A DNA stretch of 64,000 nucleotides, taken from contig CAYTFU010000005.1 in assembly GCA_964437185.1 (NCBI GenBank), positions 2,528-66,527 of the forward strand, given 5' to 3'. Source of the stretch: an uncultured Candidatus Saccharibacteria bacterium (GTDB taxonomy: Bacteria > Patescibacteriota > Minisyncoccia > Phycocordibacterales > UBA2100). Positions within the stretch are counted from its first letter, which is position 1. Each line of letters starts with the position of its first letter. The position numbers and the translations under genes are program-made. Positions 2,832 to 60,818 of this stretch are shown here, piece by piece. Below the pieces are notes generated by a model. It made no database searches, was not told where the DNA came from, and was given only the letters and a program-made list of their open reading frames with translations.

Positions 2832-4100
2832 ATGAATGACTACGCACACATTCAAAAGCAAGATCCGGATGTTTTTAAAGTATTAGAGGGCGAAGAAACG
2901 CGCGAGGCCGAGGGGCTCGAGCTCATTCCGTCGGAAAATTACGTCTCAAAAGCCGTGCGCGAGGCCAACGGCTCGTGCTTTACCAACAAATATTCCGAAG
3001 GCTACCCGGGCAAGCGATACTACGGCGGCCAGACCTACACCGACGAGGTAGAGACAATTGCGATTGAGCGCGCGAAGAAGCTCTTCAACTGTCAATTCGC
3101 AAACGTGCAAACGCACGCAGGCGCGCCTGCGAACGTCGCAATGTACTTTGCTCTCCTTCAGCCAGGCGACACTGTGCTCGGCATGGATCTCTCGCACGGC
3201 GGCCACCTTACGCACGGACACCCTGTCACGTACCTAACGAAGATTTTCAACTTCGTCCGCTACAAGATGAAGGATCCCAACACGGGAGAAATTGATTACG
3301 ATGAGATGCGCAAAGTCGCTCTCGAACACAAGCCCAAAATCGTCCTCGCAGGTTTTTCCGCATACCCACGCGAGCTCAACTACGCGAAGTTTGTCGAGAT
3401 TGCCCGCGAAGTCGGTGCATACGCAATCATGGACGTCGCCCACATCGCAGGCCTTATCGCTGGCAAGGCGGTGAAAAGCCCGTTTGACTTTGGCTTCGAC
3501 GTGATGACATCGACTACGCACAAAACCCTTCGCGGCCCACGCGGCGGCCTCATCCTCACGCGCGAGAATGAAGAAATCGCGAAGAAAATCGACAAATCCG
3601 TCTTTCCCGGCCTCCAAGGCGGCCCCATCATGAACACCGTCGCAGCCAAAGCTGTGTGCTTCGGCGAAGCGCTCCTGCCATCGTTCCAGACCTACGCATC
3701 GCAAATCCTTAAAAACGCTAAGGCTATGGAAGAAGTCTTTCGCTCCAATAACATCCGCATGCTCACTGGCGGCACGAGCAACCACCTTATCCTCGCCGAC
3801 GTCTTCGGCAGCCTCGGTATGCCCGGCCAAGAAGCCGAGACGCTGCTCGACAAAGCGGGCATCACGCTCAACAAAAACTCGATTGCAGACGACACGCGCA
3901 AACCGATGGATCCTTCCGGCATCCGCTTCGGCACGCCCGCAATCACGACACGCGGATTCAAGGAAGCGGAGTGCAAACGCGTGGCTGAATTGATGGTGGA
4001 CGTCATGAAAAATAAAGACGACGCAAAAAAGCAGTCAGAAATCCGCGAAGAAATCCGCACCCTCTGCCTCAAATTTCCCATCCCCGAGTCGTTTGTGTAA
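2832..4100 (+). CDS. glyA: serine hydroxymethyltransferase
   Basis: 422 aa, SHMT blocks (PSENYVS, YSEGYPGKRYYGG, TTHKTLRGPRGG). Confidence 0.95.
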   Translation: MNDYAHIQKQDPDVFKVLEGEETREAEGLELIPSENYVSKAVREANGSCFTNKYSEGYPGKRYYGGQTYTDEVETIAIERAKKLFNCQFANVQTHAGAPANVAMYFALLQPGDTVLGMDLSHGGHLTHGHPVTYLTKIFNFVRYKMKDPNTGEIDYDEMRKVALEHKPKIVLAGFSAYPRELNYAKFVEIAREVGAYAIMDVAHIAGLIAGKAVKSPFDFGFDVMTSTTHKTLRGPRGGLILTRENEEIAKKIDKSVFPGLQGGPIMNTVAAKAVCFGEALLPSFQTYASQILKNAKAMEEVFRSNNIRMLTGGTSNHLILADVFGSLGMPGQEAETLLDKAGITLNKNSIADDTRKPMDPSGIRFGTPAITTRGFKEAECKRVAELMVDVMKNKDDAKKQSEIREEIRTLCLKFPIPESFV

Positions 4101-4223
4101 AGACGGATGAGGTGACCCTCTCTCGTGTCCGCGACTTGAGAAAAAAGTGTTTGCCAACAGTCGCGCTTAAGGCACTTTCTCATCTATTCGTTTCTGGCAG
4201 CTCTCCGGCGATCTAACGACCTA

Positions 4224-4321
4224 TTGTTTATCTCTGACGGCCGTCAAAGATAAACAATACTTCTCCGCAAGGAGATGAGAGGGCTTTTTAAAAATAACGA
4301 TTTCGTAAATCGTTATTTTTT
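4224..4321. terminator. two adjacent palindromes (17-bp arms 4224..4257; 14-bp arms 4291..4319 with flanking A/T tracts), bidirectional terminator candidate
   Basis: ttgtttatctctgacgg/ccgtcaaagataaacaa and aaaaataacgattt/aaatcgttattttt inverted repeats between convergent genes. Confidence 0.45.
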
Positions 4322-4466
4322 ATGAAAACCTCACACTCCTTTGTCTCTTTTGAATTCACCATTCGACTTCGCTCATGGTAAACCTGAATGATGCGCTCAA
4401 AAGAGTGGGGCATTTTTACGTGTTGCCCCAAGTCCACGGCGGGTTTCGGACCCGCAAAGATCAACC

Positions 4467-4955
4467 CTAGGACGCAGCGCGTGCCGCCGCGGCCCTTAAG
4501 GCCTCGGCGATCGCCGGTCCGCGGGCGTTTATTCGGTTTATCCAATCAACGCCCGCGATTGCGCCGTGGATCGCGGAATAGCCCTCCCAGCCATCGGCAA
4601 GCCGATGGACTGGCGCAGGTTTGTCGAGGAATTTGGCCGCCCTGTCCACGGCCTCCCGGAACTCCGGGAGGTACTCGAGGGCATTTTGCCCCCTCTTGGG
4701 CAGGGAGTCGTCATACTCCCCAAGGTCGACGAGGTCGACCCTCCGAATCGAGAGAGCGGGGTCGTCGGGCACAAAGACCCAACTTCCCCGAAGATACGAG
4801 CGATTTTGCTCGTCGTTAAATTTTTTCGCGCCCGAAATTTCAATCGCCCAGCCAGCTGGCCTGGGCGGGAGTGTTCCGCAGGCGTAGGTCGGCCAAACCT
4901 TGGCCGGCACTCTCGCGATCAAAAGAAATTTTCCCATGTCGTACATGTCAGTCAT
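4467..4955 (-). CDS. hypothetical protein in GC-rich island
   Basis: ORF 4467..4985, start placed at MTDMYDMG; region 4400..5090 visibly GC-richer than flanks; no recognisable motif. Confidence 0.4.
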   Translation of the reverse strand: MTDMYDMGKFLLIARVPAKVWPTYACGTLPPRPAGWAIEISGAKKFNDEQNRSYLRGSWVFVPDDPALSIRRVDLVDLGEYDDSLPKRGQNALEYLPEFREAVDRAAKFLDKPAPVHRLADGWEGYSAIHGAIAGVDWINRINARGPAIAEALRAAAARAAS

Positions 4956-5335
4956 TTCTCTGCCCTCCTTAAGGGCGTCTCGCACAATCCGTGTGCGAAT
5001 TCGGTTGGCCAGTGCTGTGCGCTGGCCGATGAACGTATCCCAGCAAGACCACCTTGATGGGCAATGAGCCCGCCCGAAGGCGGCAATTTAAGGATGCATT
5101 ACCATGCGATCCCTCTTTCCTGCACTAGGCGCACAGCCTACTGCGGGAGAAGAGGAATAACAGCGTGTACCTGAAGTACGCATGATTCCAGTTCTACCTA
5201 TTTATCTGTCAGAGAGCGCATCGGCGAGGCAATTTGGGCACAATGCCGAATGGCTTGTAAGTTTAACATGCTAACATGTGTTTGTCAAGTGAAATATGGC
5301 GAATTGTGGACATTTTTGGGGGTATAATCCTCCAA

Positions 5336-5956
5336 ATGCCTGAAATATCACTTACCGTCCTCGTCCAATTCTTCGGCTACCCCGGCCTCTTCACCGCAGT
5401 ATTTCTGGAATCGGGCCTCCCGATCGGTTTTTTCCTTCCCGGCGCCTCGATGCTTTTTACGGCCGGACTTCTCGCATCGCAGGGATTTTTCAATATTTGG
5501 ATTCTCATTCCCCTCCTCACGCTCGGCGCGATTTTGGGAGACAACGCGGGCTACTGGCTTGGAGCAAAGCTCGGCGTGCGACTTTTCCTTCGTCCTGATT
5601 CTCGATTTTTTCATCACGCGCATTTGGCGCGCGCGAAGGAATTTTACGAGAAGCACGGCATGCTCGCGATAGTGCTTGCGCGCTTTGTGCCTATCGTGCG
5701 CACCTTTACTCCGATTGTCGCGGGCATTGTGCGAATGAATTACCGCACTTTCATCATGTACAACATCGTGGGCGCGCTCTCGTGGGCTTCGGGCGTTACG
5801 TACATTGGGTACCTGCTCGGCGAAAAGATTCCCGGCGTAGAAAAATATCTCTCCCCCATTCTTCTCGGCATCATCGTGCTCACCTGCATCCCGCTCGGTG
5901 TGCAATTGTGGAAAAATTGGAAATCTCCCACACCGCCCACTACACCACTTGCCTAA
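5336..5956 (+). CDS. DedA / SNARE-associated (TVP38) family membrane protein
   Basis: VFLESGLPIGFFLPG DedA signature, multiple TM segments; start placed at MPEISLTV. Confidence 0.75.
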   Translation: MPEISLTVLVQFFGYPGLFTAVFLESGLPIGFFLPGASMLFTAGLLASQGFFNIWILIPLLTLGAILGDNAGYWLGAKLGVRLFLRPDSRFFHHAHLARAKEFYEKHGMLAIVLARFVPIVRTFTPIVAGIVRMNYRTFIMYNIVGALSWASGVTYIGYLLGEKIPGVEKYLSPILLGIIVLTCIPLGVQLWKNWKSPTPPTTPLA

Positions 5957-23707: not shown

Positions 23708-24253
23708 ATGTGCACAGCTTACATCGTGCGTATACCCTTCTGTTACAATCTATTAATGCGAAAGCGAAGCTGGTCTCTGCAACAGCTAAAGAAGGCCGCA
23801 GAACAGTCGCATAGTATTCGTCAGGTTCTTATCAATTTGAAGCTTGTGCCGGCGGGAGGAAACTACGTACAAATAAAGCGAGAGCTAGAGATTCAAGAAA
23901 TCGATACGCTGCATTTTCGGGGAAAAACCTGGAATCGCGGACTCAAAACACCTAGACCACCTCTCATAGCTACTGCTGACATACTAGTGAAAAAAAGCGG
24001 CTACCAGAGTTTTAAATTAAAGAAGCGTCTCTTTGCCGAGGGTTTGAAAAAAGCCCAATGCGAAATCTGCGGTTGGGCGGAACGATCAATCGACGGTCGT
24101 CTTCCCCTTGAACTCGATCACGTAAACGGCGATCGCTACGACAATCGAATCGAAAACTTACGAATACTTTGTCCCAACTGCCATAGCCTTCAACCCACAC
24201 ATCGTGGTAGAAATAAGGGACGTCGGGGTGGCGTAATTGGTAGCCGCATTTGA
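23708..24253 (+). CDS. HNH endonuclease
   Basis: CEICGW...LELDHVNGDRYDNRIENLRILCPNCH HNH/zinc motif; alternative start ATG 23756; lower GC than surroundings; 3' end overlaps tRNA-Leu by about 30 nt. Confidence 0.7.
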   Translation: MCTAYIVRIPFCYNLLMRKRSWSLQQLKKAAEQSHSIRQVLINLKLVPAGGNYVQIKRELEIQEIDTLHFRGKTWNRGLKTPRPPLIATADILVKKSGYQSFKLKKRLFAEGLKKAQCEICGWAERSIDGRLPLELDHVNGDRYDNRIENLRILCPNCHSLQPTHRGRNKGRRGGVIGSRI

Positions 24254-24305
24254 CTTAAGATCAAATGCTCGAAAGAGCGTGTGGGTTCGAGTCCCACCCC
24301 CGGCA
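24222..24305 (+). tRNA. tRNA-Leu(TAA)
   Basis: manual cloverleaf: acceptor GTCGGGG/CCCCGGC (one GU), anticodon stem TTTGA/TCAAA, loop CTTAAGA, long variable arm, T-loop TTCGAGT; 84 nt. Confidence 0.85.
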
Positions 24306-24307
24306 CA

Positions 24308-24485
24308 GACTGAGCGGAGCGAGTGCTGTGCTGGGGAGCACAGCGCCTGCGCGCTGTGCGTGTGGGACTCGAAAGGCGCAGGCATGTCGCACGAGTACGT
24401 GCGACGCCGAGCCGGGGTCGCGGAAATTCAATCGTGTCGACGATTGAATTATTCGTGACCGAGTTTACCCCCCACCCCCGGCACA
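24308..24485. repeat. hairpin-rich GC-rich insert ending in a 15-bp duplicate (cccacccccggcaca, 24471..24485) of the tRNA-Leu(TAA) 3' end
   Basis: perfect hairpins gtcgcacg/cgtgcgac and aattcaatcg/cgattgaatt; duplicate of 24293..24307. Confidence 0.6.
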
Positions 24486-31235: not shown

Positions 31236-31287
31236 TTATAGCAGAAAGCGCCTCTCCCCGCCAGCAAAAAAACGGCCAATGAAAGGC

Positions 31288-31801: not shown

Positions 31802-32422
31802 CTAACTGCTCAATACAACCACATCATTTTCCTTGCCGGCAAGGTCCCGCGGCTTGATCGTAAGCTTGTCGACGGGCTTTACACTTTCTTCTCCCGCTTC
31901 TTTCTGAAATTGCTTCAGTGATTTGTCGTCGAAGAGAATCGGTATCACGATTTTTGCTTCAAGCTTCACCGCAAGCTTCTGCGCCTCCGCAGGATTCAAT
32001 ACTCCATTGCCACCGATTGGCACGATGAGCACATCGGGCGCATCCATTTCGAGCACATCGCCAGGCAAATCAAGATCGCCGAGCGCGCCGAGGTAGAGAA
32101 TCGACATGCCGTCGAACTTTACTGAGTAAACTGTGTTGATGCGCGGAGTGCCGCCAAAATTTGAGCCTGTGCCAAACCCCGCGACCGTCGATTCTTTAAT
32201 CTCATATTCACCTGGGCCAGAAACGATAAATGGTTGACGCTCGCCTCTCGCCGCCTCATCACTCCCGTTCATATCGGGATGATTAAATGAAATGAATGCA
32301 ACGTCCGCACCAAAGTTGGTTGGCTTAAAATTCTTGGACGCTTTAGAAATCGGCCCAAACACGAGCGTCGTATCCCCCGCACTCGCGCGTATGCATGCAC
32401 CTTCGTGATACGACAATATCAT
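31802..32422 (-). CDS. MBL-fold metallo-hydrolase
   Basis: 206 aa, beta-lactamase-fold blocks (ISFNHPDMNGSD, VLIVPIGG). Confidence 0.6.
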   Translation of the reverse strand: MILSYHEGACIRASAGDTTLVFGPISKASKNFKPTNFGADVAFISFNHPDMNGSDEAARGERQPFIVSGPGEYEIKESTVAGFGTGSNFGGTPRINTVYSVKFDGMSILYLGALGDLDLPGDVLEMDAPDVLIVPIGGNGVLNPAEAQKLAVKLEAKIVIPILFDDKSLKQFQKEAGEESVKPVDKLTIKPRDLAGKENDVVVLSS

Positions 32423-32552
32423 AATGAATTTTACCTAGTGTCGACCAGTATAGCAGAAAGCCTATCCACCGCGAAAACATTGACGGATGAATAGAGAGAG
32501 TAGTTTAGCTGCACGGCGGAACAACTTCCTCCGTCGTAAAAGGAGGGTCGCC

Positions 32553-32600
32553 ATGGCTGAGGGGGCCATTAAGCGACAGTCGAAGAATCACCACAACTGA
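32553..32600 (+). CDS. 15-codon mini-ORF (MAEGAIKRQSKNHHN) with consensus SD, candidate leader peptide
   Basis: AGGAGGG 5 nt upstream of the ATG; followed by a second SD-led mini-ORF and alternative hairpins. Confidence 0.3.
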   Translation: MAEGAIKRQSKNHHN

Positions 32601-32612
32601 AAGGAGGTCACA

Positions 32613-32627
32613 ATGACCTGGACCTAG
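32613..32627 (+). CDS. 4-codon mini-ORF (MTWT) with consensus SD
   Basis: AGGAGG 5 nt upstream of the ATG; Trp codon; embedded in hairpin ggtcacaatgacc. Confidence 0.25.
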   Translation: MTWT

Positions 32628-32668
32628 GTACGATCTTTTCGAGAACAAGTCCCGTTTAATCCGCCCGA

Positions 32669-32720
32669 ACGGGCACTGGGCGGCATCTGTGGGATCCACG
32701 ATGCCGCCTTGAGCTTTTTT
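32669..32720 (+). terminator. Rho-independent terminator
   Basis: ggcggcatc/gatgccgcc 9-bp perfect stem followed by ttgagctttttt; the upstream segment ccgccc (32651..32656) can alternatively pair with gggcgg (32668..32673). Confidence 0.7.
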
Positions 32721-32814
32721 ATATACACAGAAAATCGCAAATCATCATTGACCGCGCGATTCGCCGTTCTAAACTTCTACGAGCTATCTGATCTTTCCAC
32801 AGGTGGCTGATGGT

Positions 32815-32838
32815 GCCGACCTGGGGTCGGCATTTTTT
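32815..32838 (+). terminator. second hairpin plus T-tract terminator
   Basis: gccgacc tgggg tcggc followed by atttttt. Confidence 0.5.
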
Positions 32839-33156
32839 AATTGGAAAGACGGCACCGGAAACCGCAATGGCAAAGAAACAGCCCGAGAAGGAACCTCCTC
32901 GCAAAACCATTTCTCTCTCTACTGGATTTTTTTTCGCGGGCAATGGTGGATTACTTTCGCAATCCATCAAGCGGCGTCCGAAAAAGCCGCCCAAAAAGAA
33001 ATCTTGAGACCGCGCCCGGAAGAGTTGCTAGCCACCGTGCGTAGTGGCGACTCTTCCGGGATTTCGTTTTTTACTCTCCCCCGCATCCCCACTTCACATT
33101 TAAATTCTCCTTGACCAAAAATCACAAAGGACATACGCTCGACTGTGGCAACCTGG

Positions 33157-33168
33157 TCTTTGAATATT
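33157..33168. repeat. 12-bp direct repeat tctttgaatatt, left flank of GC-rich island
   Basis: identical copy at 33818..33829, 661 bp away, at the other edge of the 66% GC segment. Confidence 0.5.
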
Positions 33169-33235
33169 GAAGTCAGGTCGCGGACGTTGGGGGATGTCTC
33201 TCAGCGTTCACTACTCAACCCGCATGGAGGAAAAC

Positions 33236-33724
33236 ATGCGAAAACTTGGATTGGCTACCGTGGCAGGGGCGATGATGCTCGCCTTCGCCATGACGCACGC
33301 GCCCCCTTCGATGGCGCAGTGCATCACCGGCACCAATGCCGGACTTTCCGCGATCAATCCCGGCCCGCCAGTGTTGCCGGAAGCGATCGCGCTGGCTGAC
33401 CAAGCTCCGGTCGGCCAGGCTACCGCGACGGAGTCAACCTTCCTGGGGCAGATTCCGTGGGCGTCCGAAGCCATCGCTCCCCTCGCCGGCAACATGGCGA
33501 AAAGCGCGGTGGTGCCGACTTCCATCACCACCCCGCGCGGTGGCGCGACGGGCCAGGTGATGGTGCGCCTCCCGACAACCACGCAGGCCGATTCGGCTGT
33601 GCATCAACTCGGCGCGGAGGGCTTTATCGGGCCGCCCTCGGCGTTGCAACACGGCGCGGCGATCGTCGGCAACGCGCCGTTCACCAAGATCGCCCTGGTC
33701 GGCCAGATGGCCTATGCTGGCTGA
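33236..33724 (+). CDS. secreted hypothetical protein in 66%-GC island
   Basis: signal peptide MRKLGLATVAGAMMLAFAMTHAPPSMA; GC3-rich codon usage unlike neighbours; start placed at the internal ATG of the 33167..33724 ORF. Confidence 0.5.
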   Translation: MRKLGLATVAGAMMLAFAMTHAPPSMAQCITGTNAGLSAINPGPPVLPEAIALADQAPVGQATATESTFLGQIPWASEAIAPLAGNMAKSAVVPTSITTPRGGATGQVMVRLPTTTQADSAVHQLGAEGFIGPPSALQHGAAIVGNAPFTKIALVGQMAYAG

Positions 33725-33817
33725 TGCAAGTCGCCACCGGTCAGGCACTGATCGCCTGACCAAATAAGGGGGTGCGGCATCGAAAACTATGCTACTCGAT
33801 GTCGCACCTTCCCCCTT

Positions 33818-33829
33818 TCTTTGAATATT
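33818..33829. repeat. 12-bp direct repeat tctttgaatatt, right flank of GC-rich island
   Basis: see 33157..33168. Confidence 0.5.
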
Positions 33830-33989
33830 TTGAGAAATATTTTTCTTGCGCTCACGCAACTCATCATATATAGTATGCGAAGTCCCGATAGGGACTTTAT
33901 TAATTAATAGAGCGTTCGGTAAAGCTTCCTCGCAGACAGTCACGGTAGCGCAACGGTAGCGCAGGCGGGATAGTCCGAACCAAATTACA

Positions 33990-35114
33990 ATGGTAAAAGA
34001 AAAAGAGGAGAAGAAGGTTATTTTAACGGAAGAGAACGAAGTGGAAGTGGCGGCGGTCAAGCAAGGGCCGATGGCGGAGTTGCTTGAGAAATCAGCGACG
34101 CCACCGTCGATGGATGACGTCGTAGAAGGCCCGGTGGTCGCTATCGGCCGCGCGCGAGTTTTCATCGATCTTGCGCCGTTTGGTACGGGAATTATTTATG
34201 GTCGCGAATACCTCTCGGCACGAGAAGCACTCAAAAATGTAAACATCGGCGATACGGTAACCGCGAAGGTCGTCGGATTCGACAATGCAGAAGGGTACAT
34301 CGAAGTCTCGCTGCGCGAAGCACGCCAAGCAGTCATTTGGAATGAGGCTGAGCAGGCGATGCAGAAGAAGACGGTGTTTGAGCTTCCTGTCACCGATGCA
34401 AATAAAGGCGGACTCATCATTACGTGGAACGGCCTTGCAGGATTCCTTCCCGCTTCACAGCTCGCACCAGCGCACTACCCGCGCGTGCCGGACGGAGACA
34501 AAGACAAGATTTTTGTTGAGCTCAAAAAGATGATCGGCACGAAGATCGAGGTCATGGTCATCACCGCAAGCCCGAAAGAGCAGAAGCTTATCTTCAGCGA
34601 GCGTGGCGCAGGTACGACGGAGCGTTCATCACTCGTGGAGAAATATCACATTGGCGATGCGCTCGATGGCGTGGTCACGGGCGCTACGGAATTCGGAGTC
34701 TTCGTGAAGCTCGAAGAAGGACTTGAAGGACTCGTGCACATTTCTGAAATGGATTGGGCTCTCGTCGAGAATCCAAAGACGCGCTATCGCGCAGGTGAGC
34801 ACGTGAAGGTGAAGGTGATCGAGATCAAGGAGGGCAAAATCTCACTTTCGATCAAGGCGCTCATGGATGACCCGTGGAAAGCAGCTGCGGCGAAATACAA
34901 AAAGGATCAGCGTGTCGAGGCAGTTGTCATCAAGTACAACAAGCACGGAGCACTCGCATCGATCGAAGAAGGAGTCGCTGGCCTCGTCCACGTCTCGGAA
35001 TTTGCAAACGAAGAAGATCTTCGCGCGAAGCTCGAGCTCGGCAAGGTGTATCCGTTTACCATCACATTCTTCGAGCCGAAGGATCGTCGGATGACATTGA
35101 AGCCGATCGTATAA
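33990..35114 (+). CDS. rpsA: 30S ribosomal protein S1 (four S1 domains)
   Basis: 374 aa, repeated S1 OB-fold blocks (GxV.G.V..I..FGxFV). Confidence 0.9.
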   Translation: MVKEKEEKKVILTEENEVEVAAVKQGPMAELLEKSATPPSMDDVVEGPVVAIGRARVFIDLAPFGTGIIYGREYLSAREALKNVNIGDTVTAKVVGFDNAEGYIEVSLREARQAVIWNEAEQAMQKKTVFELPVTDANKGGLIITWNGLAGFLPASQLAPAHYPRVPDGDKDKIFVELKKMIGTKIEVMVITASPKEQKLIFSERGAGTTERSSLVEKYHIGDALDGVVTGATEFGVFVKLEEGLEGLVHISEMDWALVENPKTRYRAGEHVKVKVIEIKEGKISLSIKALMDDPWKAAAAKYKKDQRVEAVVIKYNKHGALASIEEGVAGLVHVSEFANEEDLRAKLELGKVYPFTITFFEPKDRRMTLKPIV

Positions 35115-35165: not shown

Positions 35166-35180
35166 ATTGAGGGAGTTGAT

Positions 35181-35194
35181 CTGATTCATCGCGC
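35181..35194. repeat. 14-bp direct repeat ctgattcatcgcgc (degenerate copy of pth 3' end), outer left boundary of cassette
   Basis: identical to 35983..35996, which lies inside the last codons of pth (...RAMNQ); the left copy would encode ...GAMNQ. Confidence 0.65.
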
Positions 35195-35202
35195 CCTCTA
35201 TA

Positions 35203-35242
35203 GTGTTGTTTATAAATTGCTATAGCGTTAAACAAACAACAT
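35203..35242. repeat. hairpin repeat A1 (24-nt core gtgttgtttataaattgctatagc plus imperfect palindromic arms)
   Basis: core identical to 35848..35871; arms tgttgtttat / taaacaaacaaca. Confidence 0.7.
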
Positions 35243-35839
35243 TTAATCGAGAGGCAGTCTGAAATGCCGACGCAGCGGCGCATCAAATTCAATAGCATCT
35301 GCGATGATATAGATAAGCTCTCTACCGATTTTGAGATCGAGCTTTAATAGCGCGACTACCTCCTCACAGTCATACGGAAGAACCCACACGCTATCCTGAA
35401 GCCGAAAAAAACCCATTCTTGAGACGAGTAGTCGAACGCGTTCCCGCAACCCCTTTCTTTTTTCCTCAATATCGAAAATCACGATGCGCCATTTGCGGTC
35501 CCATCGACGAGGCTTTTTGATCTGAGTTTTACCGAGAGAGGCGCGTCGAGCCTCCTGCTCGCCTTTTTGCGTAAGTCGGGGAACATTTCTGCCGTTGAGA
35601 TTTCTGAATTCGATCAGTCCCTTGCGCTTCATTCGAGAGAGGGTCTCCCGCAATCGGCGACGCGGATCTCGCTTACTCATCCAATCGGGATCGCAGTGCT
35701 TCAAAAGCTGGAGCGCATTTGGCGCAGCCATTGCAACAACTGCGATACCCGTCGCCGAGAAGGCGGCAAGTAACATATTTTCTATGTTCACCCGCCTCGT
35801 CCTTTTCTTGGATTCTGATTCCATCCGCCCCACAAGCAC
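35243..35839 (-). CDS. winged-helix-like N-terminal domain fused to a Cas2/VapD-like C-terminal domain (PaaX-like architecture), paralog A
   Basis: 198 aa, GTG start; N-terminal segment NMLLAAFSATGIAVVAMAAPNALQLLKH; C-terminal WRIVIFDIEEKRKGLRERVRLLVSRMGFFRLQDSVWVLPYDCEEV matches the Cas2 core pattern (beta1 hydrophobic-x-x-FD, basic helix, Q-x-SV-F/W); paralog at 57452..58039. Confidence 0.55.
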   Translation of the reverse strand: MLVGRMESESKKRTRRVNIENMLLAAFSATGIAVVAMAAPNALQLLKHCDPDWMSKRDPRRRLRETLSRMKRKGLIEFRNLNGRNVPRLTQKGEQEARRASLGKTQIKKPRRWDRKWRIVIFDIEEKRKGLRERVRLLVSRMGFFRLQDSVWVLPYDCEEVVALLKLDLKIGRELIYIIADAIEFDAPLRRHFRLPLD

Positions 35840-35845
35840 ATCTTA

Positions 35846-35889
35846 ACGTGTTGTTTATAAATTGCTATAGCATGGAATAAACAACACGT
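35846..35889. repeat. hairpin repeat A2, perfect 13-bp-stem palindrome acgtgttgtttat...ataaacaacacgt with 18-nt loop
   Basis: core identical to A1; begins 7 nt upstream of the GTG start of the Cas2-like ORF, so an operator/5'-UTR position. Confidence 0.7.
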
Positions 35890-35973
35890 GAGAAATGGAA
35901 CCGATTATGTGATATGAGAAGGCGGCACTTGGAACGCACTATTGCGAAAGACCGCGTCTCGCCGACTCTGCCT

Positions 35974-36564
35974 TCAATTAAACTGATTCATCGCGCGTTC
36001 GGGGCCTTCGGTCGCAATGATCGCGAGCGCTTTTGAAATTTGTTGGAAAACTTTCTTTAGTTCGATCAGTTCGTTCGCCTTAAACTTTGCGAGAATAAAT
36101 TTTACGACCTCCTGTTCGCCATGAGGTTTATGAATCGCGCCGCCTGCCGTCTTCGGTGAGACGCCGATGCGCACGCGGGTGAACTTTTTGGTCTTCACTG
36201 CACGCATGATTGACTCTACGCCTTTATGTCCGCCGCTTCCGCGATTAAAAGAAAGCTTGATTGTCCCGAATGGCAGGTCGAGATCGTCGTAGAGCACCAC
36301 CATACGCTCGGCCGCCTTCGCACTTTTCACGTACTTCAACACCGCAGAGCCAGATTTGTTCATAAACGTATCGGGAGCGACCAATGTAACGCTCGTTTTT
36401 CCCACAGTACCGCGCGCCACGTGAGCTTTGGACTTCTTATCTTCCCTCCACTCGTCGAATTTTTGCTCATCTGCAAAAAAATCGAGCGCCATGCGGCCGG
36501 CATTGTGCCGTGTCGACTCATATTCCTCACCTGGATTACCGAGACCGACAAATACCCATGCCAT
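35974..36564 (-). CDS. pth: peptidyl-tRNA hydrolase
   Basis: MAWVFVGLGNPGEEYESTRHNAGRMALDFFA N-terminal Pth signature; start placed inside the longer 35974..36687 ORF. Confidence 0.9.
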   Translation of the reverse strand: MAWVFVGLGNPGEEYESTRHNAGRMALDFFADEQKFDEWREDKKSKAHVARGTVGKTSVTLVAPDTFMNKSGSAVLKYVKSAKAAERMVVLYDDLDLPFGTIKLSFNRGSGGHKGVESIMRAVKTKKFTRVRIGVSPKTAGGAIHKPHGEQEVVKFILAKFKANELIELKKVFQQISKALAIIATEGPERAMNQFN

Positions 36565-50715: not shown

Positions 50716-51705
50716 TTAGTGCCGAAAATGGCGGATGCCGGTGAAAACCATGGCAATGCCTGCGGCGTTCGCAGCGCTAATTGAATCCTGATCTTTAAGA
50801 GAACCGCCCGGCTGGATAATCGCCGTAATCCCCTCCTGCGCAGCCACGTCCACGCAATCAGGAAACGGCATAAAAGCATCGGAGGCCATTACGGCGCCTT
50901 CGAGAGAAATTTTCTCGTCGGCCGCCTTAATCGCGGCAAGCCGCGCGGAGTATATGCGGCTCATCTGCCCCGCGCCTATTCCTACTGTCGCGCCATCTTT
51001 TGCATACACGATCGCGTTGGACTTTACGTGTTTGCATACGGTGAATGCAAAGAGTAGGTCAGCGAGTTCTTTTTCTGTTGGCACGCGCGTGGTGACTGTT
51101 TTTACCTCACCGTCAAACACCTTCGCATCGGCGGTCTGTACGAGTACGCCACCCGCGATTGATCGCATGGTCGTACGAGGTTCCGCAGGATCGGGCATTG
51201 ATCCCGTGAGGAGCACGCGCACATTCGGCTTCACCGAAAGAATCGTGAGCGCTTCTTCCTCGGCATCGGGAGCGATGATTACTTCGAGAAATATTTTGAC
51301 AAGCTCGCTCGCAAGATCGGCAGTGATTTTCGAATTGAGCGCGACGATACCGCCAAAGGCAGAGACGGTGTCGCACGCAAACGCTCGCATGTAGGCATCG
51401 TGAATCGTGTCCGCAACCGCCACTCCACACGGGTTCATGTGCTTCACGATCACAGCGGCTGGCTCCTCAAACTCGGCGACGCATTCAAAGGCCGCGTCGG
51501 CGTCCTGCAAATTGTTGAAGCTGAGTTCCTTCCCCTGCACCATGCGCGCAGACGCGACGCCCGGTCGGACGTCGCCTGGATTTCTGTACAAAGCCGCTGC
51601 TTGGTGAGGATTCTCACCGTAGCGAAGCGCGCTTATTTTCTCGAGCCTCAGCGAGAGAGGCGATGGAAGCTGTTCTTGCTCGTGATCCGCTTCGTTCATT
51701 GCCAC
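50716..51705 (-). CDS. purH: AICAR transformylase domain protein (PurH C-terminal domain only, no IMP-cyclohydrolase/MGS domain)
   Basis: [10 protein letters not shown] near the N-terminus corresponds to about residue 220 of bifunctional PurH; GTG start; 329 aa. Confidence 0.8.
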
Positions 51706-52648
51706 ATACTACTACGCCTCAGCTCATTTCTCCATCGCGAAACTACTCTACAACGATCACCTTGCCGTACACGCCGCCCTTCACGTGATTGTGGTACGGC
51801 CATGTACCCACCTTCTCAAACTTCGTAGTATACGTTGCTCCAACTGCACACTGGTCAAATGCAGTGTCAGTCGTGTCGGGACAGTGCTCTTTGAGTGTCG
51901 TACCCGCGTAGCCTTTGTGATCCGGGTGCATCGCGGTCGCTACCCACATATCGGGACCTGTGCTCGTGAAGGTAACGGTACTTCCCTTCTTAACCGTCAC
52001 TTCAGCGGGAGTAAACGCTGCACCATCGTACGAAACTCCACACGGGTTCATGTGCTTCACGATCACAGCGGCTGGCTCCTCAAACTCGGCGACGCATTCA
52101 AAGGCCGCGTCGGCGTCCTGCAAATTGTTGAAGCTGAGTTCCTTCCCCTGCACCATGCGCGCAGACGCGACGCCCGGTCGGACGTCGCCTGGATTTCTGT
52201 ACAAAGCCGCTGCTTGGTGAGGATTCTCACCGTAGCGAAGCGCGCTTATTTTCTCGAGCCTCAGCGAGAGAGGCGATGGAAGCTGTTCTTGCTCGTGATC
52301 CGCTTCGTTCATTGCCACATACTACTACGCCTCAGCTCATTTCTCCATCGCGAAACTACTCTACAACGATCACCTTGCCGTACACGCCGCCCTTCACGTG
52401 ATTGTGGTACGGCCATGTACCCACCTTCTCAAACTTCGTAGTATACGTTGCTCCAACTGCACACTGGTCAAATGCAGTGTCAGTCGTGTCGGGACAGTGC
52501 TCTTTGAGTGTCGTACCCGCGTAGCCTTTGTGATCCGGGTGCATCGCGGTCGCTACCCACATATCGGGACCTGTGCTCGTGAAGGTAACGGTACTTCCCT
52601 TCTTAACCGTCACTTCAGCGGGAGTAAACGCTGCACCATCGTACGAAA
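51423..52648. repeat. perfect tandem duplication, 2 x 613 bp
   Basis: 51423..52035 equals 52036..52648; junction gcaccatcgtacgaaac|tccacacggg. Confidence 0.85.
51743..52318 (-). pseudogene. chimeric ORF created by the duplication: PurH residues 1-95 fused to the C-terminal 96 residues of the cupredoxin-like protein
   Basis: first 95 aa identical to 50716..51705 product, remainder identical to the C-terminus of 52356..52820 product. Confidence 0.6.
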
Positions 52649-52820
52649 CAGTCGCTGTTGTCGCAGCTGCCGGAACCCCCGCATCAGTCGGCACAGCTGG
52701 GACGGTCGGAACTGCTGCAACCGGCGCTGGATTCTCCACCGAAGCCGCAGAACCCTTCATAAGCCAATATCCGCCACCAAGTACTACAATTATTATCACT
52801 ATCCACATCACTGGTTTCAT
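52356..52820 (-). CDS. cupredoxin-like (plastocyanin-fold) membrane-anchored protein
   Basis: N-terminal [15 protein letters not shown] ... HPDHKGYAG ... CPD ... [10 protein letters not shown]: His/Cys/His ligand-like pattern. Confidence 0.65.
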   Translation of the reverse strand: MKPVMWIVIIIVVLGGGYWLMKGSAASVENPAPVAAVPTVPAVPTDAGVPAAATTATVSYDGAAFTPAEVTVKKGSTVTFTSTGPDMWVATAMHPDHKGYAGTTLKEHCPDTTDTAFDQCAVGATYTTKFEKVGTWPYHNHVKGGVYGKVIVVE

Positions 52821-60237: not shown

Positions 60238-60386
60238 GGCTTAACCACGAGTTGAGTTCTAGAAAGAGGAGGCAGATTGACATATGTAGTTTTTTTGTTC
60301 ATAATTTTTCAACCCCGATTAGATTCGGAGGAGTTCTATGACACCGAGCCGCATCACGGTGAATTGATGCGGATATAGGAGAAAAC

Positions 60387-60818
60387 ATGCCAAAAATCCC
60401 CGACGATGGGAGCGCTTTGGCCCTCGCCATGAGGACCAACGTCATGGCCGGGCTCCCGCCCGCGACCGACCTCACCGACCTCAAAATTATTGAGGTTCGA
60501 TACCCGCTCACCGACTCCAATGCTCGCCAGCCAGTGTTCCGCATTGCCGTCGCCAACGATCGCGTTGTCGCTGTGCAACATGGAACGTACACGGCACGAC
60601 GCGACACCTGGGGATCTTGGGAAGCGTATTTTGGATTGACGCAACGGGGCCTGCGGGGCCTGAACGAAGCTCCGCTTGTGCCTATGCCTAATACTCTCCG
60701 CAAGATTTTGAATCGGGCGCGGCCGACACTTCCCCAAGAAGCCAAAGCAGTTTCGGCGGTCGTACGGGAGGCCCAGCAATCTTGGAACGATTGGAGAACG
60801 CGAGACACCGCTGCCTAA
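60387..60818 (+). CDS. hypothetical protein in GC-rich island
   Basis: 143 aa, GC3-rich codons, no recognisable motif. Confidence 0.4.
   Translation: MPKIPDDGSALALAMRTNVMAGLPPATDLTDLKIIEVRYPLTDSNARQPVFRIAVANDRVVAVQHGTYTARRDTWGSWEAYFGLTQRGLRGLNEAPLVPMPNTLRKILNRARPTLPQEAKAVSAVVREAQQSWNDWRTRDTAA

Follow-up and report, generated by a model that had tools for sequence, protein, structure and literature searches.

The GC-rich DNA directly upstream of rpsA in the stretch analysed here (the window, 64 kb long) carries a gene for a small protein with a predicted signal peptide. We favour, with moderate confidence, the reading that it is a lineage-specific, self-contained orphan gene for a secreted protein, which takes the last position in a hotspot of accessory genes and is insulated from rpsA by a terminator of its own. 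In the mechanism that we propose, the gene would form a single-gene transcription unit, in which its own promoter leads into a structured 5' untranslated region (5'UTR), a GGAGG ribosome-binding site (RBS) and the reading frame of a 162-aa precursor. This precursor would be exported by means of its Sec signal peptide, and cleavage behind Ala27 would release a mature protein of some 135 aa. The transcript would run on the + strand from near 33146 to near 33822, where a strong intrinsic terminator would stop it some 30 nt short of the conserved rpsA promoter. The route by which the gene arrived, or arose, in this slot would most likely have been recombination and not transposition. The features on which this reading is built are collected in Table 1; the segment that lies between the two copies of a 12-nt direct repeat is referred to as the island.

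The gene and its transcription signals

The preliminary description had seen in positions 33236-33724 an ORF with a clean signal peptide, and this holds: the frame is open throughout and its start shows the tripartite layout (n-, h- and c-region) of a Sec signal peptide. Judged by inspection and by Kyte-Doolittle hydropathy, the N-terminus, MRK-LGLATVAGAMMLAFAM-THAPPSMA with QC following the predicted cut, has a 16-residue hydrophobic core (the maximum 15-residue mean, 1.98, starts at residue 4) and small residues at -3 (Ser) and -1 (Ala); no lipobox was found at the cut, where MAQC does not qualify as one. The protein is made up of 20% Ala, 11% Gly, 9% Thr and 9% Pro with 7.5% charged residues, and the mature part, some 135 aa long and beginning with QCITG, would be Ala/Gly/Thr/Pro-rich and almost uncharged. 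Gene callers place the start further upstream, at ATG 33194 (176 aa); this ATG is without a properly spaced ribosome-binding site, so that the 162-aa start chosen in the preliminary description is the better one.

Several properties that can be read from the sequence indicate that the coding frame is real, namely the RBS, the signal peptide, the absence of stops, a low Arg content, a GC content that is higher at first than at second codon positions (GC1 > GC2), and the terminator. Arg makes up 1.9% of the residues in the coding frame and 18-24% in four of the five other frames; the fifth is the antisense frame that has its third codon positions in common with the coding one, and it contains two stops. 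GC content at the three codon positions is 0.65, 0.58 and 0.795, with GC3 the highest. As a side observation, 18-24% Arg in off-frames is typical of GC-rich coding DNA that is misread. An AlphaFold single-sequence model of the protein is uninformative (pLDDT 36), and the protein may be disordered or non-functional. Its export and its function are inferred, and the mature protein is probably extracytoplasmic or surface-exposed.

Table 1. Features of the lacB-rpsA spacer in the window (position 1 is the first nucleotide of the window)
Feature	Position	Strand	Remarks
Lineage-specific part of the spacer	32511-33845		the island gene is the final unit; unmatched in 160 related loci at the nucleotide or translated level
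Putative sigma-70-type promoter of the island gene	33111-33139	+	TTGACC (33111-33116), 17-nt spacer, TACGCT (33134-33139)
Structured 5'UTR	33148-33209	+	hairpins 33148-33181 (holds the left repeat copy) and 33182-33209
Left copy of TCTTTGAATATT	33157-33168	+	inside a 5'UTR hairpin; 85 bp upstream of the GC change-point
Shine-Dalgarno sequence GGAGG	33226-33230	+	5 nt before ATG 33236; from sequence
Coding sequence (CDS)	33236-33724	+	162-aa precursor; 0 stops; Sec-type signal peptide in residues 1-27
Predicted signal peptide	33236-33316	+	residues 1-27; predicted cleavage between SMA and QC, after Ala27
First 3' hairpin, ggtcaggc/gcctgacc	33739-33761	+	no U-tract
Intrinsic terminator	33766-33822	+	18+7-bp stem (33766-33817), then TTTCTTT (UUUCUUU)
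Right copy of TCTTTGAATATT	33818-33829	+	shared in part with the terminator U-tract and with the A/T-rich DNA before the rpsA promoter; 56 bp beyond the right GC change-point
Conserved rpsA promoter	33846-33874	+	TTGCGC, 17-nt spacer, TATAGT; from an alignment of 25 rpsA upstream regions and blastn limits

The only plausible promoter of the island gene is a putative one of the sigma-70 type, and the left copy of the repeat lies downstream of it. Its -10 element keeps T1, A2 and T6, is weak and fails a consensus scan (3/6), and its use is probable on the strength of the sequence. The RNA that follows would be strongly structured, with a predicted fold of -38.7 kcal/mol for positions 33140-33240 (z -3.4; 0 of 200 shuffles fold as well), and because its stems use G-U pairs the structure is specific to the + strand. 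At the other end, the preliminary description had the ORF ending in a hairpin; this hairpin is present, but it is the first of two, and it is the second that has the make-up of a terminator. Positions 33720-33835 fold with -45.9 kcal/mol (z -4.8), and a simple terminator scan misses the terminator because its loop is 12 nt long. Relatives have a terminator in the same position, just upstream of the rpsA -35 element. Rfam searches of the whole window, and permissive ones of 32300-34100, returned only tRNAs and chance-level matches, and RNAalifold gave no structure for the rpsA leader.

An orphan gene in a variable slot between lacB and rpsA

As far as sequence comparison reaches, the island protein is a strict orphan confined to this lineage. 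No homologue was found among about 15 billion proteins, which were covered by word-indexed searches of 5.8 billion clusters and by full HMMER searches of 1.84 billion representatives, no match was found in Pfam, NCBIfam, PHROGs or the PDB, and tblastn of the protein against phages, plasmids and IMG/VR gave nothing. The possibility that the frame covers a fragment of a known gene read in another frame was considered and dropped, as the five other frames, searched together, found nothing either; the donor lineage that the preliminary description had expected from a search with the ORF did not emerge, with no homologue in any frame. Nor was a second copy of the island found in the 64-kb window, in the related loci, or in IMG/VR, phages and plasmids.

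The genome is a MAG of Candidatus Kaiserbacteria (Paceibacterota, CPR), and the relatives that were identified through RpsA are MAGs of Candidatus Kaiserbacteria/Paceibacterota. The gene order gyrA, a 141-aa gene, lacB (-), rpsA (+) and pth (-) is conserved. The island gene sits between two divergently transcribed core genes, lacB, for a protein of the metallo-beta-lactamase fold, and rpsA. In some 60 species the spacer between these genes ranges from 127 to 2254 bp and its content turns over wholesale: what is conserved across the relatives is no more than the lacB promoter region and some 130 nt in front of rpsA, and species pairs with 91-94% identical flanks have nothing in common between the flanks. 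In the window, the only parts of the spacer with counterparts elsewhere are about 90 bp beside lacB with the extended -10 promoter of that gene and, at the other end, roughly 145 bp with the promoter and leader of rpsA. Compared with positions 4884-4945 of the closest relative (L006, 94% RpsA identity), the ancestral lacB promoter region extends to near 32510, and the sequence common to relatives begins again at the rpsA promoter, so that 33846 marks the right edge of the variable slot. Comparison with the rpsA upstream regions of relatives, which the preliminary description had recommended, bears out that the block is lineage-specific, with everything from 32511 to 33845 unmatched as DNA or as protein in 160 related loci. 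It also changes the extent of the block: the lineage-specific stretch is about 1.3 kb long, not the 661 bp that had been taken for an insert bounded by the repeat, and the repeat thus does not delimit an insert. A further small ORF, 32867-33007, lies in the same lineage-specific part.

Other species fill the slot with other things. In L006, the spacer holds a pair of minus-strand ORFs, which from the motifs in their translations read as a HEPN/MNT-like toxin-antitoxin pair, and two tandem non-coding units. In at least 12 relatives the slot contains + strand ORFs, 95-175 aa long, that start with a signal-peptide-like segment and often exceed their genome somewhat in GC content. Two of these relatives, L007 and L011, share one such gene with 49% identity; apart from this pair, the slot ORFs have no detectable similarity to each other or to the island ORF. 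The lacB-rpsA spacer is a hotspot of accessory-gene turnover across Kaiserbacteria.

A high-GC fragment of another organism, joined in by chimeric assembly, would also produce a local jump in GC, and some contigs of this population do break at 32813, 33034, 33143 and 33283, but this explanation is effectively refuted by a comparison of assemblies. Three assemblies (L001/L086, L002 and L003), made from three samples by two assemblers (two MEGAHIT k141 assemblies from ENA and one Logan assembly), run across both junctions and are 100% identical over 2.5 kb. Three shorter contigs, which start at 33034 or 33283 and thus inside or just upstream of the block, match exactly, and the 12-bp repeat is far shorter than the k-mers used in assembly (k=141) and so cannot cause a misjoin. 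The host-like GC content of the 5'UTR and 3'UTR and the functional integration of the unit with the rpsA promoter also speak against a chimera. In all, the island protein was read on seven contigs of the collection; contigs of this population are 99.8-100% identical, and up to 33143 the left flank recurs in a strain that differs slightly (4 mismatches in 2 kb). The breaks at 33034, 33143 and 33283 were considered as strain breakpoints; with no alternative sequence tied to them, they are regarded as fragmentation. The loci L089-L091 were likewise considered as different contexts and turned out to be the same sequence with differing gene calls. No island-less variant was found among the exact-protein contexts of RpsA and LacB, none of the 160 related loci retains the left flank and could display an empty site, and a 24-mer made of left flank plus repeat is absent from JGI metagenome contigs. 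As to closer relatives, the 90% RpsA cluster has one member, the best RpsA from JGI metagenomes reaches 92% and is partial, and no relative above 94% RpsA identity was found.

Base composition and the flanking repeat

Windowed GC content has its peak where the preliminary description had put it, the GC-richest 500-bp window of the 64 kb starting at 33257 (0.68, z 4.3), and the GC content of the ORF is 0.671. The DNA between the repeat copies is GC-rich as described, with a measured value of 0.646 (64.6%) against a window mean of 0.536. The next-highest 500-bp window (0.638) falls within ORF 1452-2144, the translation of which looks from its motifs like a dCMP deaminase, and with such a value in a host gene the host's own GC range comes fairly close to that of the island. 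What did not stand is the claim that the repeat sits exactly at both compositional boundaries: a maximum-likelihood fit of two change-points places these at 33253 and 33761 (support intervals 33244-33294 and 33677-33787), well inside the repeats, and a fit with the boundaries at the repeats is worse by 5.8 lnL units. The GC-rich block 33253-33761 corresponds to the body of the CDS, and both the 5'UTR (33169-33235, 56.7% GC) and the 3'UTR (57%) are near host values.

The codons, which had been called GC3-saturated, have a GC3 of 0.795, which is below saturation and above anything in the host (mean 0.594 ± 0.057, maximum 0.74), and the island ORF is the strongest outlier in both GC and GC3 among the 71 ORFs of the window. 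When the same protein is encoded in simulation with host codon usage, the expected GC content is 0.628 (62.8%), as against 0.675 observed, and the expected GC3 0.648 ± 0.037 (z 4.0; 0 of 5000 simulations attain the observed value), so that GC content and codon usage deviate by more than the make-up of the encoded protein accounts for. The Ala/Gly/Thr/Pro-rich protein contributes about two thirds of the GC excess and the raised GC3 about one third. Signatures that are normalised for base composition are not outlying: the dinucleotide signature has a delta* of 119 vs 95 ± 34, with 21% of windows at least as deviant, and the tetranucleotide check that had been proposed gives a correlation at the 9.5th percentile, no outlier after normalising. 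The raised GC3 would suit a gene from an unsampled foreign source or one of recent origin. It may be added that this excess, 4 sd above host prediction, is accounted for in the reading that we favour only by assuming such an unsampled donor.

The repeat itself is as described, an exact pair of TCTTTGAATATT with no other copy in the window even when one mismatch is allowed. Both copies are intergenic and no gene end is duplicated by them; the A/T-rich stretch that the right copy overlaps lies 16 nt upstream of the rpsA -35 element. We considered whether the right copy is ancestral rpsA-upstream sequence and rejected this, as the T-rich TTTGAA motifs of relatives are only loosely similar, stand at varying distances and include no positional homologue. 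Matches of 12 nt are not rare in 64 kb, as the preliminary description had cautioned, and the window holds about 25 distinct direct-repeat pairs of at least 12 nt spaced 100-1500 bp apart, a count read off a repeat listing and set against a chance expectation of about 5 that is our own estimate. The chance of a bracket around a gene was estimated with the flanks of non-cognate genes in the window as control, which respects intergenic composition. A common 12-mer or longer was found in 0.26% of 4911 non-cognate flank pairs and in the cognate flank pairs of 3 of the 71 ORFs, namely the island gene (12 nt), a paaX-like gene downstream of rpsA (24 nt) and ORF 60299-60808 (14 nt), where the repeat looks like an RBS motif (GGGGAGG, minus strand) that stands before two neighbouring ORFs of the minus strand. 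P is about 0.003 for a bracket around the island gene taken a priori and about 0.17 for one around any of the 71 ORFs. The bracket is thus unlikely a priori and unremarkable if any of the 71 would have been flagged, and with about 0.003 for the most GC-anomalous gene, coincidence is an uncomfortable dismissal.

In the spacers of relatives, repeat pairs of at least 12 nt that are 300-1500 bp apart are 2.4 times commoner than in control DNA, and several of them have the look of promoter or terminator motifs that recur, or of paralogous units in tandem, and not of scars. An inverted-repeat search of 32900-34000 (seed 7) turned up no pair whose arms lie near 33169 and 33817, none of the called genes within about 10 kb has a Pfam family of transposases or integrases on record, and the island has no tRNA or tmRNA gene closer than 8 kb, the distance of the nearest tRNA gene. 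In the reading that we favour, the 12-bp repeat is either a scar of short-homology recombination or a coincidence.

Competing explanations and the origin of the gene

The repeat would find a direct explanation if a discrete mobile segment of 649 bp had been inserted upstream of rpsA with duplication of its 12-bp target, be it by transposition, by site-specific integration or by a single crossover of a circle at 12-bp homology. The empty site would then have read ...CAACCTGG-TCTTTGAATATT-TTGAGAAAT..., with one copy of the repeat and no gene. This agrees with the perfect match of 12 out of 12 in only two copies, the low a priori chance of such a bracket, the rank of the enclosed gene as compositional outlier, the enrichment of repeat pairs in relatives' spacers and the example of the paaX-like insertion next door, with its 14-bp duplication of the pth 3' end and its empty site in L006. 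We nevertheless think it unlikely. The repeats lie outside the compositional change-points, and terminal inverted repeats, a transposase or integrase within about 10 kb, a tRNA gene close by and a second copy are lacking wherever they were searched for. Moreover, the putative promoter would be outside the insert and the U-tract of the terminator would have to be supplied by the target, while several of the repeat pairs in relatives look like recurring motifs or paralogous units and the third bracket in the window like an RBS motif. The left flank, 32511-33156, is itself lineage-specific, and for this reason the pre-insertion site is not reconstructable. Insertion sequences and MITEs with target-site duplications resemble the island in the exact 12-bp repeat around some 650 bp of deviant composition; the island differs from them in being a single copy with neither terminal inverted repeats nor a transposase, in having its repeats off the compositional edges and in carrying as cargo an ordinary gene with its own terminator. 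Integrase-borne islets with att repeats are alike in that direct repeats surround lineage-specific DNA, but the island has neither an integrase within about 10 kb nor a tRNA or tmRNA target, and 12 bp is short for a core att site.

Two further explanations concern the gene itself, and we give little credence to either. The ORF could be non-functional, as a chance frame in GC-rich filler or in decayed foreign DNA, or as a very young de novo gene without an established role, and both the lack of a homologue in about 15 billion proteins, with full HMMER included, and the low model confidence would suit this; GC-rich DNA is also readily open, other frames here being open for 123, 243 and 100 aa, and the 12-bp repeats would permit easy loss. 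However, a well-spaced GGAGG, a signal peptide with n-, h- and c-regions, the absence of an Arg excess and a terminator of its own would be unlikely to come together by chance, and the sequence is identical in every sample that carries it. The gene could instead be an old resident, a positional orthologue of the signal-peptide ORFs that other Kaiserbacteria have before rpsA, which has diverged beyond recognition under diversifying selection. The recurrence of such + strand ORFs in at least 12 relatives, and the one shared by L007 and L011, speak for this, but similarity among the slot ORFs is otherwise absent and none extends to the island ORF. The adjoining non-coding DNA is unalignable even where the flanks are 91-94% identical, which fits replacement and not divergence in place, and the GC3 excess would not be expected.

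The reading of the island as an orphan accessory gene in a hotspot makes it an ordinary kind of object in an interesting lineage. Taxonomically restricted (ORFan) genes for small secreted proteins are common in CPR/Patescibacteria genomes, and the island gene is like them in its Sec signal peptide, in belonging to no family, in its location in a variable region and in having unrelated analogues in the same slot of relatives; it departs from the usual ORFan in an unusually strict orphan status, given the some 15 billion proteins covered, and in a GC3 excess of 4 sd. Between conserved core genes, hotspots of horizontal gene transfer can be devoid of mobile-element genes, as outlined in a study of 80 species (Oliveira, Touchon, Cury and Rocha 2017; PMC5635113). 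The lacB-rpsA slot resembles the hotspots outlined there in being a fixed interval between core genes with rapidly replaced accessory content and no recognisable mobility genes; the next interval, rpsA-pth, is also like them in that an insertion has at its edge a duplicate of a short part of the core gene pth. Unlike those hotspots, the lacB-rpsA slot is tiny (0.1-2.3 kb), holds single small genes or non-coding units, is enclosed by a pair of divergent promoters and belongs to a reduced-genome CPR bacterium, outside the 80 species of that study. The finding is a modest one, an assembly-verified strict orphan gene, probably for a secreted protein, in a CPR bacterium, together with the recognition of the interval before rpsA as a fast-turnover accessory slot across Kaiserbacteria. 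Should the island gene prove to be newly born, it would qualify as a candidate for gene origin de novo.

The neighbouring insertion offers the nearest parallel. The paaX-like gene (35243-35839) lies in an insertion of about 800 bp (35195-35982) in the rpsA-pth interval, which is flanked by exact direct repeats, a 14-bp pair plus a 24-bp pair. The left 14-bp copy (35181-35194) is what is left of a pth 3' end, and L006 has the site in its empty form; on this sequence comparison, the paaX-like gene is a real insertion with a 14-bp duplicated target. It is like the island in being a single small lineage-specific gene of similar size, in the next intergenic slot and with short flanking repeats, and unlike it in that L006 displays the empty site, whereas for the island no outgroup keeps either flank. 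If the repeats around both genes were scars of one insertion process, this would point to a way in which reduced CPR genomes acquire single genes without classical mobile elements. A bolder proposal, which we consider improbable, is that small promoter-proximal slots of Kaiserbacteria (lacB-rpsA and rpsA-pth) are filled by single-gene cassettes of about 0.6-0.9 kb with repeats of 12-24 bp, delivered by a route of insertion for which the cassette has no need of an integrase or transposase of its own, and that the island ORF is a recently captured or newborn secreted effector of an episymbiotic CPR bacterium. Were this so, the two bracketed units within 2.7 kb would be the first footprints of such a process, the paaX-like one with a verified empty site.

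Units of the lacB-rpsA spacer and the rpsA leader

Next to the lacB promoter, the variable spacer between lacB and rpsA holds a leader- or ncRNA-like unit (fold z-score -2.8), for which no Rfam match was found and whose 5' motif, TTGACG..AGAGAGAGTAG, is shared with the related loci L006 (the closest relative) and L008. L006 has two such units, paralogous to each other and arranged in tandem (4907-5270 and 5434-5716). The window's unit contains two mini-ORFs and ends in a terminator (see table for coordinates), and further terminator-like hairpins stand on either side of a very basic ORF of 46 aa, for which a search of the related loci gave no match; the spacer therefore looks like a series of four plus-strand units, each with a terminator at its end.

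Downstream, the conserved structured leader in the rpsA 5'UTR contains the motif ACGGTAGCGCAAG, which is near-invariant across the window and about 70 related loci, and which in the window is present as a tandem duplicate (ACGGTAGCGCA twice, 33942-33963). Pairing in the stem around ACGGTAGCGCAAG is 89%, with compensatory changes in four of the five pairs, and its covariation score is 0.353, compared with at most 0.148 in slid controls. The leader returned no match in Rfam; one possibility is that S1 regulates its own expression through this leader, which would then be of a type not yet described.

Features of the window
Feature	Position	Strand	Remarks
tRNA-Leu(taa)	24222-24306		
TATAGCAGAAAGC (minus strand: GCTTTCTGCTATA)	31237-31249 and 32449-32461		upstream of gyrA and of lacB
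Leader- or ncRNA-like unit	32479-32722	+	adjoins lacB promoter
Mini-ORF, 15 codons	32553-32600	+	perfect Shine-Dalgarno sequence; within 32479-32722 unit
Mini-ORF MTWT	32613-32627	+	perfect Shine-Dalgarno sequence; within 32479-32722 unit
Terminator of 32479-32722 unit	32679-32720	+	
Terminator-like hairpin	32812-32838	+	one side of 46-aa ORF
Small ORF, 46 aa, very basic	32867-33007	+	MAKKQPEKEPP...KKPPKKKS
Terminator-like hairpin	33015-33072	+	other side of 46-aa ORF
Structured rpsA leader	33880-33989		same position in ~70 related loci
paaX-like insertion with bracketing repeats	35166-35996		
paaX-like gene	35243-35839	-	PaaX_M/Cas2-like domain
Exact tandem duplication, 613 bp	51422-52647		

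The same interval in related loci

The lacB-rpsA spacers of 12 relatives (L007, L011, L020, L024, L031, L032, L033, L034, L038, L047, L051 and L058) repeatedly carry small plus-strand ORFs, 95-175 aa long, whose N-termini resemble signal peptides; many of these ORFs are somewhat higher in GC than their own locus. No mutual relationship was found among these ORFs, the sole exception being the L007/L011 pair (49% identity). In L006 (region 4042-4971), a pair of ORFs lies between lacB and its promoter, so that the ancestral lacB promoter now stands ahead of the pair, which we read from its sequence as a putative toxin-antitoxin system composed of a HEPN protein (140 aa, RX4H motif) and an MNT nucleotidyltransferase.

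Insertions, duplications and short direct repeats

Between rpsA and pth, which in L006 are separated by a spacer of only 54 bp, the window carries the paaX-like gene as a lineage-specific insertion. The insertion lies between the two copies of a 14-bp repeat, CTGATTCATCGCGC (35181 and 35983), of which the left one is a remnant of the 3' end of pth, and also between two copies (35203 and 35848) of a palindromic element of about 40 bp, GTGTTGTTTAT-N-GCTATAGC-N-AAACAACAC. The palindromic element is also present in L006 (5313-5352), and as a variant with a different centre in the related locus L061 (7104-7141); its possible roles are those of an operator or a bidirectional promoter.

The 613-bp tandem duplication, either an assembly artefact or a recent event, is invisible to Tandem Repeats Finder because its period exceeds 500. 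It yields a chimeric ORF (51743-52318), whose N-terminus is identical to the N-terminus of ORF 50716-51705, which appears purH-like in translation, and whose C-terminus is identical to the C-terminus of a 154-aa ORF (52356-52820) that we judge to be cupredoxin-like.

The 15-nt string CCCACCCCCGGCACA, which spans the final 14 nt of tRNA-Leu(taa) and the base that follows (24293-24307), recurs 178 bp downstream (24471-24485) and may be an att-site remnant left after integration into the tRNA gene. The TATAGCAGAAAGC/GCTTTCTGCTATA pair looks like an extended -10 promoter motif, TGCTATA, common to gyrA and lacB, and shows that a regulatory motif used more than once can account for a short direct repeat between genes of this genome.
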